A DNA stretch of 64,000 nucleotides from Patescibacteria group bacterium (GTDB lineage: Bacteria > Patescibacteriota > Minisyncoccia > Phycocordibacterales > UBA9973): the NCBI GenBank assembly GCA_040389365.1, contig JAZKAB010000003.1, positions 7,357 to 71,356 of the forward strand, read 5' to 3'. Shown here piece after piece: positions 5,716 to 25,645 of the stretch; the first letter of the stretch is position 1; every line of letters starts with the position of its first letter. The notes beneath the pieces were generated by a model, which saw nothing but the letters and a program-made list of their open reading frames with translations, made no database searches and was not told the DNA's origin. The position numbers and the translations under genes were made by a program.

Positions 5716-5743
5716 TTGACAAAAGTTTGACTTTTTTTATATC
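5716..5743 (+). promoter_or_regulatory. sigma-70-like promoter TTGACA-16-TATATC upstream of the 5789 gene
   Basis: Consensus -35 TTGACA and a TATATC -10 hexamer in the 90-nt intergenic region after rseP. Confidence 0.4.
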
Positions 5744-5788
5744 CATGATAAAGTATAGACTATATCAATAGTATAAACACACAGACAC

Positions 5789-6823
5789 ATGGCAACTATC
5801 AGTTTTAAACCTAAACAAGTCACAAAGCGCCTGCTCTCAAACCTGCAGGACCGCGCGCATGACATTATCGTCAACCGCTACGGGCTTGAAGACAATGCTG
5901 ACTCGAAAACACTCGAGGCAATTGGCAAGAAATACGGCATCACTCGAGAGCGCGTTCGCCAGATCGAGAATGCTGCGCTTGCAGCAATCCGCAAGAGTGA
6001 CAGCTTCAAGGCTGAGACCAAGGTATTTGGCGAGCTTCAGGAACTGGTAAAGGTGATGGGCAGCATGGTGCATGAAGACGACTTCCTTTCCTACGTGTCT
6101 AAGGACAAGGCAGTACAGAACCATATTCGCTTCTACATGGTGCTTGGCGAAGAATTCGAAAAGCTGAAAGAAGACGATCATTTCCAGACTCGCTGGACTG
6201 TTGACCAGGAATTGTCTGAAGTTATCCATGACGCACTGCACAAGGTATACAAGAGCCTTGATGACAAGGAGCTTCTTAGCGAAGATGACCTTGTGACTCG
6301 CTTCCTTGAAGAATTGAAGGGCGTAGCCGTTCAGTACAAGAACGAAGAGGTTGCTCGCCGATGGCTGAACATCTCAAAGAAAATTGGCGTTAACCCGCTT
6401 GGCGAATGGGGTCCGTCTGATTCTCAGAACATCAAGACTCGCGGCATTAAGGACTATGCCTTTCTTATGATGCGCAAGCACGGCTCTCCAATGCACTTCC
6501 GCGAAGTCGCAAAGGCTATCGTCGATACGTTCGGTCGCAAGACGCATGTTGCAACGACTCACAACGAGCTGATCAAGGATCCCCGCTTCGTGCTTGTTGG
6601 CCGCGGCTACTACGCGTTGTCAGAATGGGGCTACAAGCCTGGCGTTGTGCGCGACGTGATCAAGGAAATTCTTGTAAAGGAAGGCCCGCTTACCAAAGAA
6701 GACGTCGTTGACCGCGTATTGAAGGAGCGCTTCCTGAAGAAGAACACGATTCTGGTGAATCTTCAGAATGCAAAATACTTTACCAAGCTAGAAAACGGTA
6801 CCTATACCGTTGCGAAGAAATAG
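5789..6823 (+). CDS. sigma-70 region-4 HTH + C-terminal HARE-HTH (RNAP delta-like) domain protein, 344 aa
   Basis: N-terminus TLEAIGKKYGITRERVRQIENAALAAIRK is a textbook sigma-70 region 4.2. C-terminus FREVAKAI...HNELIKDPRFVLVGRGYYALSEWGY matches the HARE-HTH fold of the RNAP delta subunit. Confidence 0.6.
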   Translation: MATISFKPKQVTKRLLSNLQDRAHDIIVNRYGLEDNADSKTLEAIGKKYGITRERVRQIENAALAAIRKSDSFKAETKVFGELQELVKVMGSMVHEDDFLSYVSKDKAVQNHIRFYMVLGEEFEKLKEDDHFQTRWTVDQELSEVIHDALHKVYKSLDDKELLSEDDLVTRFLEELKGVAVQYKNEEVARRWLNISKKIGVNPLGEWGPSDSQNIKTRGIKDYAFLMMRKHGSPMHFREVAKAIVDTFGRKTHVATTHNELIKDPRFVLVGRGYYALSEWGYKPGVVRDVIKEILVKEGPLTKEDVVDRVLKERFLKKNTILVNLQNAKYFTKLENGTYTVAKK

Positions 6824-6826
6824 CCT

Positions 6827-7537
6827 ATGGCTGATGCTCCAGCAAGCGGCGGCGGTAGCGGATGGGGCGCGCTAGAGGTTATTCTCGCGCTCGTACTCGC
6901 TATTGGCCTTATCTCAACCCTTACTGGAAATCCTATAACGCCTATATTCGGACCGAGCAAGACAGGCAGCAGCGCTAAGAGCGCGGCTGCAACAAAAGGT
7001 ACAGCCTATGGCTGTACTGTTGTCGTTTCTGAGCCTTCTCCAAAGGAAAAGATTGGCAGCGAGGTAAAAGTGTCAGGCACGATCAGTGCTTGCGCTGATG
7101 GAGGCAGCTCATTCCCGAAGACTATCTATGCGCAAGTCGTAGACAGCAAGGGTACCGTATTGTCAGTATTGACGCCATTGCCAATCTCAAAGAATTTCTT
7201 TGGCGAAGTGCGCTTTTCAGCAGCGGTGACGTTGTCAGGCATTGCGCGCTCATCGAATGCAACGCTTATCATCACCGGTCCGGCAACTGATACTGCAAAG
7301 TCTGCAAATATTCGCGTTGCAATTACCTTGAAGACGGGCATTGCCGCTCCTGCTCCTATCAATACTGATGCAAACTTTGTTCCTGCAGCAGGATACATGC
7401 CAACTGCAACTCCTACCCCTGCTCCTACGCAGCCGCAGCCCGTATACACTCCTCCTCAGCAGGTTTCTCCTGTTGAGCAGACGCCTCCTCCAAGCACTGG
7501 TTCTGGAAATGGCGGCGGTACCGGTACGACTTTTTAA
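6827..7537 (+). CDS. membrane-anchored secreted protein with Pro/Thr/Gln-rich C-terminal tail
   Basis: One N-terminal TM helix (LEVILALVLAIGLISTL), then a low-complexity PTPAPTQPQP tail ending in a GSGNGGGTGTTF repeat. No LPXTG or pilin motif. Confidence 0.5.
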   Translation: MADAPASGGGSGWGALEVILALVLAIGLISTLTGNPITPIFGPSKTGSSAKSAAATKGTAYGCTVVVSEPSPKEKIGSEVKVSGTISACADGGSSFPKTIYAQVVDSKGTVLSVLTPLPISKNFFGEVRFSAAVTLSGIARSSNATLIITGPATDTAKSANIRVAITLKTGIAAPAPINTDANFVPAAGYMPTATPTPAPTQPQPVYTPPQQVSPVEQTPPPSTGSGNGGGTGTTF

Positions 7538-7561: not shown

Positions 7562-8827
7562 ATGCAGCAAACCATTGCTCCCACATTCATTTCGCAACTG
7601 ATCGGCGTTATCATTGCGCTCCCAATACTTTCATATCTTGCCTGGAACTTATGGATGTCATACATCCAGACGCTTTTCATAGACTCGCTTAAATGGACGC
7701 TGCTTGAAATCAAGCCGCCGAAAGAAGTCTTCAAGTCGCCGTTGGCGATGGAGCTGGTATTGAACTCGCTGTATCAGACCGGAGGTCATGGCAACTGGAT
7801 GCAGAAATACTGGGGCGGGGCAGTGCGCAACTGGTTCTCGCTAGAAATTGTCTCTATAGAAGGGTCAATTCATTTTTATATTCGCACCGCAACAAAATTC
7901 AAGAGCATTATTCAGTCGCAGATCTATGCGCAGTATCCGCAGGCTGAGGTGACGGAAGTTGAAGACTATACTGCAGCAGTGCCTGACTTTACCAAAGACG
8001 GTCCTATTGGACTATGGGGTACGAAGCTCGTGCTTACCAAAGACGATCCGTATCCAATCAAGACCTATATTGACTTCGGTCTTGACCGTGCGGTCGGCTC
8101 GCTTGATGAAGAGCAGCGTATTGACCCTATAACCCCCATGCTTGAATTCATGGGCTCAATTGGCATAGGAGAGCAGATCTGGTTCCAGATCATCGTGCGT
8201 GCCGATACCAAGCGCTTTACCGTAACGAAGGGCGGCGTCGAAGAGAGCGGCAAAAGCTGGACCGACAAGGCCAAGGAGGTTATCAAGACATTCAATGACA
8301 GCCTGAATGAAAAGGATAAGGAGGGAAAGACGATTGCAACTCGTCGCGCAACAAGAGGCGAGCAGGGCGTCATCGAGGCGATCGAGCGCAATGCCAGCAA
8401 GTTCGGCTTTGATGCCGGCATTCGCACTATCTATATCACCAAGAAAGACAAGTTCGATGCAAATCGCATTGCCGGATTGACGGGCATGGTGCGCCAGTAC
8501 AGCTCGAGCGATTTCAACAGCTTCAAGCCTGACGGCGCGACAGCGTTTGATTTCCCGTGGCAGGACATTACCGGCAGGAAGATCGTAAAGGCTAAGCAGG
8601 GCATTTTGGATGCATACAAGGCTCGTGCCTATTTCTATGGCGGCTTTGACCTTATCAAGCCTAAAAAGTATTTTACCTATCCAGAAAAATCTGGCGACAA
8701 GCCGTTCATTCTTTCAACAGAAGAGCTTGCAACCATGTTCCATCTTCCTGGTCGCGTGGCTGAAACGCCAAGCTTCGTACGCATTGAGGCAACTAAGGCT
8801 GAGCCTCCAGCAAACTTGCCAGTATAG
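7562..8827 (+). CDS. hypothetical N-terminally membrane-anchored protein, 421 aa
   Basis: One TM helix near the N-terminus and a large soluble domain with no motif I can name. TATACT -10 7 nt upstream of the ATG. Confidence 0.5.
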   Translation: MQQTIAPTFISQLIGVIIALPILSYLAWNLWMSYIQTLFIDSLKWTLLEIKPPKEVFKSPLAMELVLNSLYQTGGHGNWMQKYWGGAVRNWFSLEIVSIEGSIHFYIRTATKFKSIIQSQIYAQYPQAEVTEVEDYTAAVPDFTKDGPIGLWGTKLVLTKDDPYPIKTYIDFGLDRAVGSLDEEQRIDPITPMLEFMGSIGIGEQIWFQIIVRADTKRFTVTKGGVEESGKSWTDKAKEVIKTFNDSLNEKDKEGKTIATRRATRGEQGVIEAIERNASKFGFDAGIRTIYITKKDKFDANRIAGLTGMVRQYSSSDFNSFKPDGATAFDFPWQDITGRKIVKAKQGILDAYKARAYFYGGFDLIKPKKYFTYPEKSGDKPFILSTEELATMFHLPGRVAETPSFVRIEATKAEPPANLPV

Positions 8828-8828
8828 T

Positions 8829-9731
8829 ATGCGACCTTCTCTCCAGCGGGGCTTCATTCGAAGCGCGCTCCTAATATTAGCGCTCGGCACTGTGCTTTTC
8901 GTGAGCGCGTACAATGCATTCGTTGCTGCGCCGTCTGCATTTCCGGCACAGTATCATTTAACTGTCTCAAGCGGCGACAACGTGCGCACCATTTCAGAAC
9001 AGCTGTCTAGCGACGACGCAATCAAGTCAAAGCGCGCGTTTGAAATACTGATGACAGCACTGGGCAGCGACAAGAGCGTGAGCGAGGGCGAGTATTCGTT
9101 CGAGCAGCCGACGTCTTTGATAGGCATTGCATTGCGGCTGTCAGGCAAGGAGTTTGGCACCATGAAGCAGAAGGTGACATTTCCTGAAGGGTATACGAAT
9201 AAGGAAATGGCTGCTCGGCTTGCAGCAGTCTTTCCTGACTTTGATACCGCCGGCTTTCTTGCCCTTGCTGCAAAAGATCAGGGCATGCTCTTTCCTGATA
9301 CGTATTCATTCTTCCCAACGCCGCGGCCAGAGACTGTCGTTACGGCAATGAAGAACAATTACGAAAAGAAGATTCTGCCAATCCGTCCTGAAATACAGGC
9401 AACAGGAAGAAGCGAGCAGTCAATTATTATTATGGCTTCAATTATAGAAAAAGAAGCGAAGGGCGTCGAAGACAGTCCTGTCATTGCCGGCATTCTCTGG
9501 AAGCGATTGCAGCAAGGCATGCTATTGCAGGTTGATGCAGCGCCGGTTACCTATGCAAAAAAAGGCTTGCCGGCTGACCCGATCGGCAATCCTGGCCTTC
9601 GCGCGATCACTGCCGTGCTTTATCCCACAAGCTCTTCTTTTGTCTACTATTTACACGATCGCACGGGCGCAATACACTATGCATCTACCTACGCGCAGCA
9701 TGCGCAGAATATTAAGAAGTATTTACAATAA
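8829..9731 (+). CDS. mltG: endolytic murein transglycosylase MltG (YceG family)
   Basis: Signal-anchor start MRPSLQRGFIRSALLILALG plus the YceG hallmark TFPEGYTNKEMAARLA. The ORF-track N-terminal extension (8610..) is an artefact of the missing in-frame stop. Confidence 0.75.
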   Translation: MRPSLQRGFIRSALLILALGTVLFVSAYNAFVAAPSAFPAQYHLTVSSGDNVRTISEQLSSDDAIKSKRAFEILMTALGSDKSVSEGEYSFEQPTSLIGIALRLSGKEFGTMKQKVTFPEGYTNKEMAARLAAVFPDFDTAGFLALAAKDQGMLFPDTYSFFPTPRPETVVTAMKNNYEKKILPIRPEIQATGRSEQSIIIMASIIEKEAKGVEDSPVIAGILWKRLQQGMLLQVDAAPVTYAKKGLPADPIGNPGLRAITAVLYPTSSSFVYYLHDRTGAIHYASTYAQHAQNIKKYLQ

Positions 9732-9732
9732 C

Positions 9733-10275
9733 ATGATCCTCTCACAAACACTTGCATTCGTAGACGTTGAAACAACCGGCCTTAACAGCGATATCGCTGA
9801 GATTATTGAGCTGGGCGTTGTATTGGCAAAGCTCAAAGACGGCGAGCTCGTTGTCGTTGACCAATTGGACGTGAAGATTCGCCCAGAGCATATAGAAACT
9901 GCAGAGCCTGCGGCATTGAGGGTTAATAACTACAACGAGGCCGACTGGCTGTTTGCGGTGTCATTGCAGGATGCAATGAAGACATTTGCCGACAAGACAG
10001 ACGGGGCGGTGTTCGTGGCGCACAATGTCGTATTCGACTATGGCTTTATCGATCGCGCATTCAAGAATACGGGTGTTGAAAACCGCATGCACTATCACAA
10101 GCTCGATACGATTGCCATGGCATTTGGCATCCTGCACGACCAGGATGACATGAACAAGTTCTCCCTCAAGGCATTGTGCGAATACTATGGCATTGAGAAC
10201 AAGAAGGCGCATTCAGCCTTTGCTGACGCCTATGCGACGTATGAGGTGTTCAAGAAGCTTTTGAAGCTGAAATAG
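9733..10275 (+). CDS. DnaQ-like 3'-5' exonuclease (DEDDh, pol III epsilon-like)
   Basis: LAFVDVETTGL (Exo I) and HSAFADAYAT (Exo III) motifs. Start MILSQ immediately after the mltG stop. Confidence 0.75.
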   Translation: MILSQTLAFVDVETTGLNSDIAEIIELGVVLAKLKDGELVVVDQLDVKIRPEHIETAEPAALRVNNYNEADWLFAVSLQDAMKTFADKTDGAVFVAHNVVFDYGFIDRAFKNTGVENRMHYHKLDTIAMAFGILHDQDDMNKFSLKALCEYYGIENKKAHSAFADAYATYEVFKKLLKLK

Positions 10276-10283
10276 CGTTGCAT

Positions 10284-10311
10284 TTGACATTCCTATTTCT
10301 TACAGTATAGT
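10284..10311 (+). promoter_or_regulatory. promoter TTGACA-16-TATAGT
   Basis: Near-consensus hexamers upstream of the orphan gene at 10338. Confidence 0.45.
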
Positions 10312-10337
10312 AAGAAAAACATTTAAATACTTAGACA

Positions 10338-10946
10338 ATGGTAAAAGGAAACTATAGAGTTATTTCAGTATTTTCGCGTTCCGAAAAGCTTTTTGACGAC
10401 TATCCCTATCGGAAGTTTTATATGATTGACGAGGGGAACGTTGAAATAAGAGGCGTTGAAGAGTTTGCGCAGTATGTGGAGGCCGACTTCAGTGAGTTGT
10501 ACTTTAGGAATCGCCTTATTCCCACTACTCGAAAGGTAGTCACTATTTCTCTTGATAAGGAAAGTAGCGATACCGGCATGCAACTGTATCAAGGAAGGGA
10601 AAGAGGCATCGATTCAGTTCCGGTGTATGATACTGTTCCTCGTAACATTGATTATGATGGTATAGTAGTAGACCTGATGCTATCTCGGTCTGGCCGGCAT
10701 CGTCATGCAACTGAAAAATATCAGCCTCATGGGTTGGGAATCGTTGCATGGGCAGTCTTGCATAACATCCCTGTTGGGCTTGTGTATGAGGATGAGGGTA
10801 ATGCGGATTTTAGAAGATCAAACTTCTGGATTGAATCAGTATTGGATACGCTCGCAACCCATTCCATGTGCTATGGCAATAGAATTCCTTCAGGAAACAT
10901 TAATGATGTGTGCCGCGAAATGAGAGAGCTGCTTACGCAGCAATAA
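10338..10946 (+). CDS. hypothetical protein, 202 aa (monocistronic)
   Basis: Own promoter and a strong terminator. No recognisable motif. Confidence 0.5.
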   Translation: MVKGNYRVISVFSRSEKLFDDYPYRKFYMIDEGNVEIRGVEEFAQYVEADFSELYFRNRLIPTTRKVVTISLDKESSDTGMQLYQGRERGIDSVPVYDTVPRNIDYDGIVVDLMLSRSGRHRHATEKYQPHGLGIVAWAVLHNIPVGLVYEDEGNADFRRSNFWIESVLDTLATHSMCYGNRIPSGNINDVCREMRELLTQQ

Positions 10947-10966
10947 AGCCTTCGGGCTTTTTTTAT
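10946..10966 (+). terminator. rho-independent terminator AAGCC-TTCG-GGCTT + T-run
   Basis: Perfect hairpin followed by TTTTTT directly after the stop codon. Confidence 0.7.
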
Positions 10967-10985
10967 TGTATGTTAGTATCCTGAT

Positions 10986-12041
10986 GTGGAGAAGAAAAAG
11001 AAAATTTTTGTCGGGATCTCAGGCGGCGTAGACAGTTCAGTGTCTGCATATTTGCTGCAGCAGCAAGGGTATGACGTTCAGGGTATTTTCGTGAAGACAT
11101 GGGCGCCAGACTGGGTGCCGTGCACATGGGTAGATGAAAAGAGGGATGCAATGCGCATTTGTGCGGCATTAGATATCCCTTTTCATTTTCTCGATGCGAC
11201 AGAAGAATACAAGCATGGCGTCGCTGACTATATGATCAGCGAGTATCGCGCGGGCAGAACGCCCAACCCAGATGTCTTGTGCAACAAGATCATCAAGTTT
11301 GGGGCGATGTGGCAGTATGCCAAGGTGCAGGGTGCTGATGGTATCGCAACGGGGCACTATGCACAGGTACATGACCGAGTGCTGATAAAAGGCGCTGATG
11401 GGGCAAAAGATCAGGCGTATTTCTTATGGATGATAGAAAAGGAATTGTTGGGCCAGATTATCTTTCCGATTGGCCACCTGCAGAAGTCCGAGGTGCGTGC
11501 CATTGCAGAAAAGGCAGGGCTATTTACCGCAACAAAGAAAGACAGTCAGGGCATCTGCTTCTTGGGAGAAATCGACATGAAAGATTTTCTGCGGCACTAT
11601 ATTGATCAGAAGCCCGGCCCTGTATTGAATGAAGAAGGCAAGACGGTGGGCGAGCATGATGGCGTCTGGTTCTATACATTAGGAGAGCGCCACGGTTTCC
11701 GCATTACCGAGCACAATGTTCATAGGGAGCCGTGTTATATCGTCGGGAAAGACATAGAAAACAATACCCTTACGGTTGCGAAGGCAGCTCAAAAGACTGA
11801 GGCAAAAGAGGGAAGCATGACAGTGTCATTGCGAGACGTTAATTGGTTTAGCAATCCAGATATTTCCAAGAAATACACTGGCCAGATTAGATATCATGGG
11901 CAGCTGCTGCCAGTATCATTCGTTAATGACTACACTGTTGAGATATTTACTACAGAACAAATGCCATTAGGGCAGTCATTGGTTGTCTATGACGGAGATA
12001 TTGTAATAGGAGGCGGTGTCATTGACTTTTTGGTTATTTAG
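10986..12041 (+). CDS. mnmA: tRNA 2-thiouridylase MnmA
   Basis: PP-loop FVGISGGVDSSV and conserved Cys residues. GTG start per the ORF track. Confidence 0.85.
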   Translation: MEKKKKIFVGISGGVDSSVSAYLLQQQGYDVQGIFVKTWAPDWVPCTWVDEKRDAMRICAALDIPFHFLDATEEYKHGVADYMISEYRAGRTPNPDVLCNKIIKFGAMWQYAKVQGADGIATGHYAQVHDRVLIKGADGAKDQAYFLWMIEKELLGQIIFPIGHLQKSEVRAIAEKAGLFTATKKDSQGICFLGEIDMKDFLRHYIDQKPGPVLNEEGKTVGEHDGVWFYTLGERHGFRITEHNVHREPCYIVGKDIENNTLTVAKAAQKTEAKEGSMTVSLRDVNWFSNPDISKKYTGQIRYHGQLLPVSFVNDYTVEIFTTEQMPLGQSLVVYDGDIVIGGGVIDFLVI

Positions 12042-12076
12042 TGATATAGTGTGCCAAATATTTAAAACTAAAGAAC

Positions 12077-12280
12077 ATGAAAAAATACTTATTTGTAGCA
12101 GCAATATTGCTGCTCATAAGCGGTACCTTTACAGGGTGCGCTTGCTATGGATATAACAGCAATGCCCACGGATATGAAATGTGGCCGCAAAACAATGGCC
12201 AATATTATTACCCGTACGCAACCCAGGCTGCAGCTGCTGCCGGATTGGGCGGCGGCTATTATCCGTCCCCACGGTATTAA
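12077..12280 (+). CDS. small secreted Tyr/Gly/Asn-rich lipoprotein-like peptide, 67 aa
   Basis: Signal peptide MKKYLFVAAILLLISGTFTGC with a lipobox-like FTGC. Mature ~44-aa peptide CACYGYNSNAHGY...GQYYYPY...GGGYYPSPRY. Confidence 0.4.
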   Translation: MKKYLFVAAILLLISGTFTGCACYGYNSNAHGYEMWPQNNGQYYYPYATQAAAAAGLGGGYYPSPRY

Positions 12281-21273: not shown

Positions 21274-22278
21274 ATGAGCGAGCAAAAAATCATTCTTCCA
21301 TCAAAACCAAAAGCAGTACTAGAAGAGGGCAACAAGGGTGTCTTCGAAATTGACGGTCTAGTGCCTGGCTACGGCTACACACTGGGCAACTCACTACGAC
21401 GCATCATTCTTTCTTCTCTTCCGGGAGCTGCTATTACAGCGGTGAAGATTGACGGCGTATCGCATGAATTTTCTACTATTGAAGGCGTTAAGGAGGATGT
21501 TATTACTCTTTTGCTTAACCTAAAGAATGTTCGCTTCCAGCTTATCGGCGACGAGCCAGTCAAGGTGTCATTTTCTGTAAAGGGACCTAAGATCGTTACT
21601 GCAGCTGATATCAACGCCAAGGGCGCGGTATCTATTTCTAATACTGACCAGTACATTTGCGAAATCACTGGCAAGGCTGCTATCAATGTTGAGCTAACAA
21701 TCGAGCGCGGCCTCGGCTTCGTGCCTCGCGATGCTCATCACAAGCAGAAGGCTGATATCGGTACAATTTTCCTAGATGCAATTTTCTCTCCAATTCGTCG
21801 CGTGAGCTATGACGTAGAGGAAATGCGCGTAGGTGACAAGACTAACTTCAACCGTCTTCGTCTTACAATTGAAACTGATGGTACGCTTTCACCTCGTACA
21901 GCACTTGAAACATCAGTGAATACAATGATCGAGCAGCTTGCAGCTATTGTCTCTGTAGACAGTGGCAAGATCATTGCTGACATACAAGCTCAGACTGCAG
22001 CAAAGGCTCCTGCTATTGAATCAGGAGATTCAGAAGAAGAGACAGCCTCAAGTGATGAAGAATCAGTTGACGTTACTGACGTTCTAAAGAACCGAATTGA
22101 CGGCATTGGCCTTTCAACTCGCACGCTTAATGCGCTTTCAGCGGCTAATATCCGCACTGTTGGTGGCATCGCGCGCAAGCGCGTTGACGACCTTCTAGAA
22201 ATCGATGGCATTGGCGACAAGGGCATTACAGAAATCAAGGAGGCACTCGCTCAGTTTAACTTGTCTTTGAAGGACTAA
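21274..22278 (+). CDS. rpoA: DNA-directed RNA polymerase alpha subunit
   Basis: Alpha-NTD motifs ([23 protein letters not shown]) and an alpha-CTD helix-hairpin-helix ([14 protein letters not shown]). Confidence 0.9.
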   Translation: [334 protein letters not shown]

Positions 22279-25123: not shown

Positions 25124-25645
25124 TTATTTTATTAGCTGCGCAAACGCTTCTTCCGTCGCTTCGTCCAGCGTGTCAGTTACAAAGATCATGATCTCGGTCG
25201 AAAGGCCGAGGTCTTTCTTTATATTCATAAACAAATGCTCGAGCGGGTAGGGGGAAATCCAGACCGAGTTTTTTAATAGTATAAAGCCGGCTTTCTTAAG
25301 CAAGTATCGCAATCCGTCGCGCTCAGCCTTTCGGTCTTCAGGCAGGTCGAGCAGGATCACGCGCCACTTGCCATCCCAATTGATATCAAGCACTCCAGTA
25401 TCGGTATCAAGCTTCAGGCTATGCGCTTTGCGCTTGCCTTCGCGCGTAAGGCGCGTATAGGCTTGCTGGCCTGAATGGTGCGTTTCGACTAATCCAGCCT
25501 CTTCTAGGCCCTTCAGAGAGCGCGTAAGGGCATATTTGCCGTCCCCCAGAGAGGTAATGGTTTCAGTCAGTTCAGCAATAGAAACAGCAGGTTTTGCGGT
25601 CAAAAAGGCCAGTATTTTCTTTGAATAGTTCTTTTTGCTTTCCAT
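25124..25645 (-). CDS. PaaX-like winged-helix transcriptional regulator, 173 aa
   Basis: N-terminal wHTH (ILAFLTAKPAVSIAELTE). The C-terminus WDGKWRVILLDLPEDRKAERDGLRYLLKKAGFILLKNSVWISP matches the PaaX C-terminal domain signature. Convergent with grpE, divergent from dnaK. Confidence 0.55.
   Translation of the reverse strand: MESKKNYSKKILAFLTAKPAVSIAELTETITSLGDGKYALTRSLKGLEEAGLVETHHSGQQAYTRLTREGKRKAHSLKLDTDTGVLDINWDGKWRVILLDLPEDRKAERDGLRYLLKKAGFILLKNSVWISPYPLEHLFMNIKKDLGLSTEIMIFVTDTLDEATEEAFAQLIK

Follow-up and report, generated by a model that had tools for sequence, protein, structure and literature searches.

The window analyzed here (the whole stretch of DNA, 64,000 nucleotides of contig JAZKAB010000003.1 from a Patescibacteria group bacterium) is an ordinary Parcubacterial housekeeping region. 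It carries priA, mreB, holB, frr, rseP, the gene that concerns us, genes for a small membrane protein and a DUF8128 protein, mltG, an RNase T-like exonuclease gene and mnmA. Farther along are rpsD-rpoA, grpE-dnaK-dnaJ, dnaB, recR, and several aminoacyl-tRNA synthetase genes. The gene of interest encodes a 344-aa protein, here called X, in which a region 4 of the sigma-70 type is followed by four tandem winged helices. The X family is a conserved core protein across Parcubacteria, a part of the candidate phyla radiation (CPR). X is probably neither a sigma factor nor a delta subunit of RNA polymerase (RNAP), given that its gene lies almost always beside that of a membrane protein, and often also close to that of a DNA-pump-like ATPase. 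The coding sequence and its modules (WH, winged helix) are listed below, with the median net charge and the conservation (mean frequency of the top residue) of each module over 126 representative relatives.

5789..6823, + strand: coding sequence of X, the sigma region 4/four-winged-helix protein, 344 aa, ATG start
5810..6013, + strand: sigma-70 region 4 (4.1 and 4.2), aa 8-75; charge +5, conservation 0.51; from PF04545 and Foldseek
6017..6199, + strand: WH1, aa 77-137; charge -2, conservation 0.34; variable and slightly acidic; from the AlphaFold2 model
6206..6415, + strand: WH2, aa 140-209; charge 0, conservation 0.33; variable; from the AlphaFold2 model
6446..6628, + strand: WH3, the Pfam HARE-HTH domain, aa 220-280; charge +4, conservation 0.68, the highest of the modules; basic
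6647..6811, + strand: WH4, aa 287-341; charge +5, conservation 0.56; basic and HARE-like; from the AlphaFold2 model

The ATG at 5789 is supported as the start of X by an N-terminal motif, MxxIxFKPKQVTK, that is kept across homologues. A sequence-only reading of this gene had described a sigma region 4, without regions 1-3, joined to a HARE-type helix-turn-helix (HTH) domain resembling that of delta, and had proposed profile searches as a check. The peptides that it quoted, GITRERVRQIENAALAAIRK and FREVAKAI...HNELIKDPRFVLVGRGYYALSEWGY, are both found in the translation, and the profiles bear out the domain identities. Sigma70_r4 (PF04545) matches aa 15-69 (E=1.1e-12, 47.7 bits, cut-off 24.1) and HARE-HTH (PF05066) matches aa 220-280 (E=5.3e-10, 40.0 bits, cut-off 25.9), both above the Pfam gathering scores. 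The Pfam scan gave no match to Sigma70_r1, r2, or r3, as that reading had it, and none to a domain resembling the C-terminal domain of the RNAP alpha subunit (alpha-CTD). The NCBIfam models for RpoD, RpoS, and SigA align to X over their last ~60 positions only, with scores far under their cut-offs; the RpoD models reach 53 bits and the extracytoplasmic function (ECF) sigma model 31 bits. A sequence search of the PDB with X returned sigma-A region 4 and nothing else.

The arrangement of the modules differs from that first description, which took the HARE-HTH domain for the C-terminal ~80 aa and counted two modules; X does not consist of two modules and a linker. An AlphaFold2 model built on a 114-sequence alignment (predicted local distance difference test score, pLDDT, 90.4; predicted template modeling score, pTM, 0.73) shows five modules, region 4 and four tandem winged helices, each of the latter with a helix-helix-helix-hairpin layout. 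The HARE-HTH domain is thus internal, preceded by two winged helices and followed by another. The model has no disordered segment and no stretch with pLDDT <50. Profile comparison by hhalign relates the winged helices to one another (WH3 to WH4, 92.6%, E=4.7e-7; WH2 to WH4, 88.7%; WH1 to WH2, 82.8%).

Structural comparison by Foldseek against the PDB matches region 4 of X to sigma region 4 structures at a root-mean-square deviation (rmsd) of 1.2-2.0 A, chimeras of region 4 and the RNAP beta-flap among them, and finds it 42% identical to region 4 of Staphylococcus aureus sigma-A. Matches to the whole protein are weak and are tandem winged-helix proteins, with TM-scores of 0.15-0.25. A separate model of WH3-WH4 (pLDDT 89.1) places RNAP delta chains 8x6g_E, 9a6y_A, 7f75_L, and 6zca_D on WH3 at rmsd 2.5-3.8 A and 19-23% identity, and also matches the winged helix of Rok and the winged-helix array of SelB. 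In a profile search of PDB sequences with the HARE-HTH domain, S. aureus delta ranks first, at a marginal E=0.047. A single-sequence PDB search with the C-terminal half of X gave no meaningful match. The proposed likeness to delta therefore holds for the fold of WH3, for which the delta N-terminal domain is among the best structural matches and the top, though marginal, profile match. It does not extend to the whole protein, which lacks a polyanionic tail and scores 24.1 bits against the NCBIfam delta model TIGR04567, under the cut-off of 42.

The residues of region 4 that would face DNA are those most strictly kept. By sequence alignment to RpoD, X and Escherichia coli sigma-70 have the equivalent positions R22/R554, R30/R562, L42/L573, E43/E574, T52/T583, R53/R584, E54/E585, R55/R586, R57/R588, and Q58/Q589, which are the residues in contact with the -35 element in the Thermus aquaticus sigma-A region 4/DNA structure 1KU7. 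R53, R55, and Q58 are invariant in the representatives (126/126); E54, R57, R30, and L42 are each present in 125/126, T52 in 121/126, and R22 in 113/126. Overall, the equivalents of R554, R562, L573, T583, R584, E585, R586, R588, and Q589 are 90-100% conserved. The neighboring positions used for contact with activators (K593, R596, and K597) are free to vary. Selection on the domain for the reading of a TTGACA-like hexamer would be expected to leave such a pattern. Binding to the beta-flap alone would not need such strict conservation of base-contacting residues. TTGAC-type -35 elements are in use in the genome.

The family is large and uniform. At least 8000 homologues of X occur among the 5.8 billion proteins searched, and all named ones are from Parcubacteria/Paceibacteria; the best 120 are 329-359 aa long, nearly all 341-346, and have the same two Pfam domains. 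With one representative genome per GTDB species, at least 561 species encode a relative. The best 80 of these relatives come, with few exceptions labeled just "bacterium," from genomes labeled Paceibacterota, Nomurabacteria, Minisyncoccia, or Patescibacteria, or from metagenome-assembled genomes labeled "Saccharibacteria." A search with aa 72-344, from which region 4 was left out, against 1.84 billion 50%-identity representatives yielded 1145 matches at E 1e-3, 783 at 1e-10, and 391 at 1e-30; among the matches listed, nearly all are 320-390 aa long and the alignment starts near residue 75-120. The 126 representatives used throughout are 31-51% identical to the window protein, and Sigma70_r4 is present in 126/126 and HARE-HTH in 121/126. 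Named members belong to the Nomura-, Niyogi-, Giovannoni-, Taylor-, Azam-, Portnoy-, Sung-, and Torokbacteria. An exact-sequence look-up of the window protein found no match; homologues 94% and 70% identical to it were used in its place. We rejected the possibility that X is a full-length sigma factor truncated by assembly error, which the sequence-only reading had raised against itself, because homologues share the length of ~340 aa and the same architecture, with region 4 N-terminal throughout.

Databases name the family variously as "sigma factor-like helix-turn-helix DNA-binding protein" (NCBI), "HTH HARE-type domain-containing protein" (UniRef), "DNA-directed RNA polymerase delta subunit" (IMG), or "hypothetical." None of the labels second sigma factor (COG0568), delta subunit (IMG), and sigma factor-like HTH (NCBI) fits X. 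Both of its domains are known and their combination is already recorded in databases. The abstract of Aravind and Iyer (2012; Cell Cycle 11:119) reportedly names, among HARE-HTH proteins, certain bacterial ones that mix features of the RNAP alpha subunit and sigma factors. If so, the combination of a sigma HTH with HARE-HTH has probably been noted before. In the searchable literature we found no account of the array of four winged helices, of how strictly the -35-reading residues are kept, of the place of the family in the Parcubacterial core, or of its link to DUF8128 and a VirD4-like ATPase.

The family appears to have been counted as a sigma factor. In Table S1 of Nelson and Stegen 2015 (PMC4508563), which covers 17 Parcubacteria genomes, COG0568 is represented by two core families: an rpoD family in 14/17 (in O210, gene 0064, beside rpoB 0061, rpoC 0062, and dnaG 0063) and a second "sigma70/sigma32" family in 15/17. 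Around the second family, the same table gives the O210 order frr 0269, rseP 0268, typA 0267, 0266, an "uncharacterized conserved protein" 0264 (17/17 genomes), and UPF0755/YceG 0263. Since this order matches that of the window, the second family appears by synteny to be the X family and the uncharacterized 0264 to be DUF8128, with the genuine rpoD encoded elsewhere. Because that second COG0568 family would then have region 4 only, the number of sigma factors credited to Parcubacteria is probably one too high. A search with an approximate E. coli RpoD sequence found no rpoD in the window or in the compared loci.

Three genes follow X closely on the same strand.

6827..7537, + strand: small single-pass membrane protein, 236 aa, with an N-terminal transmembrane helix and a Pro/Thr-rich tail; starts 3 nt after the X stop
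7562..8827, + strand: DUF8128 membrane protein, 421 aa, with an N-terminal transmembrane helix; PF26449 precomputed on orthologues
8829..9731, + strand: YceG/MltG gene (Pfam YceG); begins 1 nt past the stop codon of DUF8128; in this lineage it closes the apparent, tightly packed operon

The short gaps (3 nt from X to the small membrane protein, 24 nt from there to DUF8128, and 1 nt from DUF8128 to mltG) suggest a single operon. The sole Pfam match of the small membrane protein is a weak one to Gmad2 (Ig-like). This protein is present in close relatives and is absent between X and DUF8128 in loci of Azam-, Portnoy-, Giovannoni-, Sung-, and Taylorbacteria, and is an insertion specific to the window-like clade. 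Most of DUF8128 is predicted to be cytoplasmic by the positive-inside rule. Searches of the local Pfam copy, NCBIfam, PADLOC, and the PDB returned nothing for DUF8128.

Neighbor counts were made over 170 loci. The genes upstream of X differ by clade (rseP, bipA, dus, secF, ftsW, or leuS), and DUF8128 is the next conserved gene after X in every clade sampled. It lies downstream on the same strand in 72/76 window-like loci and 50/55 loci of a more diverse clade (122/131 in all), in the latter with gaps of -31 to +284 nt. A VirD4-like ATPase gene follows DUF8128 in 25/39 diverse loci and 0/63 window-like loci. In Azam-, Portnoy-, Giovannoni-, and Sungbacteria, the gene after DUF8128 encodes a soluble ATPase of the VirD4/TrwB/HerA type with a treble-clef zinc finger and without the usual N-terminal transmembrane domain. 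Regions that hold DUF8128 and the ATPase are as follows.

Locus L085 (Azambacteria), 9097-12143: DUF8128 and ATPase
Locus L086, 9193-12724: DUF8128 and ATPase
Locus L087, 8038-11357: DUF8128 and ATPase
Locus L089, 4511-7984: DUF8128 and ATPase

Together, DUF8128 and the soluble ATPase look like a split coupling protein not linked to virB4. VirD4 homologues are numerous in Patescibacteria and mostly lie away from virB4, and their exaptation for other functions has been raised as a possibility (PMC12102498); no neighbor of a sigma-like or HTH kind is mentioned there.

Other links suggested by the neighborhood were set aside. The downstream membrane proteins are not candidates for anti-sigma factors because their cytoplasmic N termini, ~15 residues before the transmembrane helix in the small protein and ~8 in DUF8128, are too short. 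A pair of an ECF sigma and a membrane anti-sigma was likewise rejected, as X has no region 2 and DUF8128 no known anti-sigma domain. Membership in an anti-phage defense system was rejected as well; the sole PADLOC match is to the region 4 part of MzaA, and the locus is syntenic with housekeeping genes. One 659-aa protein from an ENA metagenome (P0175) fuses SecF to a region 4/HARE protein. We did not accept it as a Rosetta-stone link, because secF lies directly upstream of X in Portnoy- and Sungbacteria and the fusion is most likely a product of read-through or gene calling.

The region upstream of X holds two TTGAC-containing hexamers.

5716..5721, + strand: upstream TTGACA hexamer, the -35 element of the sequence-only reading; 11 bp upstream of the conserved -35
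5727..5754, + strand: predicted conserved sigma-70-type promoter; -35 TTGACT (5727-5732), 16-nt spacer, extended -10 TG (5746-5747) and TAAAGT (5749-5754)

The promoter originally proposed, TTGACA (5716-5721) with a 16-nt spacer and TATATC (5738-5743), is present in the DNA, but it is not the conserved one. TATATC is without the final T of a -10 element, and the upstream hexamer has no matching -10 in diverged loci. An alignment-free comparison of ~80 orthologous upstream regions, and a consensus scan as well, point to 5727..5754. The pattern TTGAC-16/17-TGnTAnnnT occurs upstream of the X orthologue in essentially all window-like loci. At strict stringency, TTGAC-17-TGnTAnnnT occurs in 30/81 loci of the diverse clade, if the TG is not insisted on; 25 of those 30 have it.

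A second TTGAC precedes the -35 element by 10-12 bp in 28/81 matches to the promoter of X itself in the window-like clade, versus 0/161 other promoter-like sites of the same loci, counts that are not phylogenetically independent. The diverse clade has this tandem in 0/30, which makes it particular to one clade, and we rejected the idea that it serves autoregulation throughout the family. In the window-like clade it could be a site at which X regulates its own gene through region 4. The whole window has one other tandem TTGAC only, a count no different from that of shuffled sequence. Single TTGAC motifs number 75 on the + strand and 47 on the - strand, which may follow the predominance of + strand genes.

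Some features of the window stand apart from X. The rpoA gene (21274-22278) encodes a clear alpha C-terminal domain (PF03118, 52 bits). The alpha-CTD has been stated to be lost in Parcubacteria (PMC8321222, citing Nelson and Stegen 2015); contrary to this statement, the lineage of the window at least retains it. A small PaaX_M (Cas2-like) protein is encoded between grpE and dnaK on the opposite strand (25124-25645, - strand), and a similar one occurs at 9172-9678 of L089, a Sungbacteria locus, ~1.2 kb downstream of the VirD4-like ATPase.

How can these features be combined into a role for X? Its architecture, residue conservation, distribution, and gene linkage are observed. Lacking the regions that bind the core enzyme and read the -10 element, X cannot work as a sigma factor, and without an acidic tail it is no delta subunit. 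We tentatively favor, at somewhat short of an even chance, a role as a TTGACA-type duplex DNA-binding adaptor of a DUF8128/ATPase membrane module, possibly also as a regulator of the operon. The adaptor role is proposed because X is first in its operon, DUF8128 is its conserved partner, and a VirD4/TrwB-type ATPase is present in most lineages outside the window clade. Region 4 would read a TTGACA-like hexamer in duplex DNA, as it does in primary sigma factors, and the basic, conserved WH3 and WH4 would supply extra DNA contacts. The variable WH1 and WH2 may serve as connector or partner-binding modules. X would then be the DNA-recognition or adaptor subunit of a membrane-anchored, DNA-translocase-like module composed of DUF8128 and the VirD4/TrwB-type ATPase, and it may in addition regulate its own operon. 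That X binds DNA, prefers TTGACA, and associates physically with DUF8128 and the ATPase is inferred.

Several points weigh against an adaptor. Both of the domain types of X have precedents for RNAP binding, sigma region 4 with the beta-flap and the delta N-terminal domain with the beta' shelf/jaw (PMC7749165). The window clade has no adjacent ATPase (0/63), none is encoded in the 64-kb window, and the operon continues into mltG. An HTH protein encoded by the first gene of an operon is the classic layout of a plain transcriptional regulator. The neighbor counts were taken in related genomes and lack phylogenetic independence. We regard as improbable a more elaborate scheme, in which X would couple promoter DNA (via region 4) or RNAP (via the delta-like HARE-HTH domain) to a membrane-anchored VirD4-like translocase of DUF8128 and the ATPase. 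If true, this would be an unrecognized core machine of Parcubacteria that pairs the reading of -35-type sequence with DNA pumping; it might, for instance, handle the chromosome, move DNA out of or into the cell, or clear transcription complexes.

X might instead be a plain transcriptional regulator whose region 4 binds hexamers of the -35 type. It might do so at the promoter of its own operon, as autoregulation, or at many promoters, where it would occlude or compete with sigma-A; it would take no physical part in the DUF8128/ATPase module. In favor of such a role are the small number of transcription factors commonly attributed to CPR genomes, the invariant -35-contact residues, the first position behind a conserved sigma-70-type promoter, and the second TTGAC one helical turn upstream of the -35 in the window-like clade. 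However, that tandem is not family-wide, five HTH-type modules without a sensor domain would be unusual in a local regulator, and the stop and start codons of X and DUF8128 frequently overlap or nearly abut, as is more typical of subunits of a complex. The fold matches of X are moreover tandem winged-helix scaffolds, and we consider a purely regulatory role rather unlikely. Also unlikely, and a little more so, is the RNAP-bound accessory factor proposed by the sequence-only reading, with region 4 on the beta-flap tip and/or the -35 element and HARE-HTH on the beta' shelf/jaw, where it could influence initiation or recycling, or hold RNAP at the membrane module. For the RNAP-centered roles raised by that reading (sigma mimic, decoy, or delta-like factor), the strongest evidence from gene context favors a different direction, an operon partnership with DUF8128 and a VirD4-like ATPase. 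It would suit the closeness of region 4 to that of group 1 sigma factors (53 bits for RpoD vs 31 for ECF), its fit to sigma region 4 at rmsd 1.2-2 A with the beta-flap chimeras included, and the standing of delta among the structural and profile matches of WH3. The delta N-terminal domain binds RNAP, not DNA (PMC7749165). Yet the acidic tail of delta is missing, the NCBIfam score is 24.1 against a cut-off of 42, and likeness to delta amounts to 19-23% identity and a profile E=0.047. There is no linkage to RNAP genes (rpoA is 15 kb off in an ordinary rpsD-rpoA context), the conserved neighbor is a membrane protein, and flap binding has no need of strictly conserved base-contact residues.

Two further possibilities are far less probable than these. 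The tandem winged helices could bind RNA and act post-transcriptionally, as in SelB, whose C-terminal winged-helix array on the selenocysteine insertion sequence (SECIS) RNA ranks with the best tandem matches for WH3-WH4. That match has TM-scores of ~0.4 and rmsd of ~6 A, region 4 of X keeps DNA-specific contacts, and HARE-HTH is otherwise tied to DNA or RNAP, which leaves RNA binding very improbable. Least credible of all is a split sigma, in which the primary sigma of Parcubacteria would have no functional region 4 and X would provide it in trans. The resemblance of its region 4 to that of housekeeping sigma factors, and the clear use of -35 elements in these genomes, would speak for it indirectly. 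However, we know of no precedent for a region 4 supplied in trans, and the four extra winged helices would be superfluous. A separate primary-sigma gene, rpoD (COG0568), lies next to dnaG in 14/17 Parcubacteria genomes (PMC4508563).

The Parcubacteria form a very large uncultured part of the CPR with tiny genomes and few core genes without known function, of which the X gene family is one. Recognizing X as region 4 plus four winged helices corrects the count of sigma factors in this group. Its operon link to DUF8128 and orphan VirD4-like ATPases offers a handle on the thousands of coupling-protein homologues that Patescibacteria encode away from type IV secretion genes. X is also a natural free sigma region 4 with intact -35-reading residues, and any binding of DNA or RNAP by it is directly testable with recombinant protein.

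Compared with known systems, X resembles group 1/2 sigma factors (RpoD/SigA) in its complete 4.1 and 4.2 HTH and in the conservation of -35-contact residues. Unlike them, it is without regions 1.1-3 and so without core binding, -10 recognition, and DNA melting; region 4 is N-terminal rather than C-terminal, and the remainder of the protein, after it, folds as four winged helices. With the delta subunit (RpoE) of Firmicutes it shares the HARE-HTH winged helix, and delta is among the closest solved structures for WH3. The C-terminal region of delta has a net charge of -47, and its N-terminal domain binds the RNAP beta' shelf/jaw (PMC7749165). In X, by contrast, HARE-HTH is internal (aa 220-280) and one of four winged helices, residues 286-344 fold as a winged helix with a net charge of +5, and there is no polyanionic disordered C-terminal region. 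X also occurs in a different phylum and gene context. It has the same Pfam domain as the HARE-HTH proteins of Aravind and Iyer (2012); Pfam shows no alpha-CTD-like domain in X.

Arrays of consecutive winged helices like that of X are found in tandem winged-helix scaffolds (RPC62/Rpc82, TFIIE/F, Dcc1, ScpB, and UFL1-DDRGK1). TM-scores to X are just 0.15-0.25 and there is no sequence similarity, so this likeness is architectural and not evidence of homology. A functional parallel may be drawn with type IV coupling proteins and their accessories (TraM or TrwA with TraD or TrwB) and with the winged-helix gamma domain of FtsK, in which a DNA-reading partner is combined with a pumping ATPase of the VirD4/FtsK-HerA type. 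TraM and TrwA have ribbon-helix-helix or tetramerization folds that differ from X, the X loci lack a relaxase or oriT context, and the ATPase is not adjacent in the window clade, so that the parallel is one of analogy only. The gene for such an ATPase stands two places downstream of X in 25/39 diverse loci.

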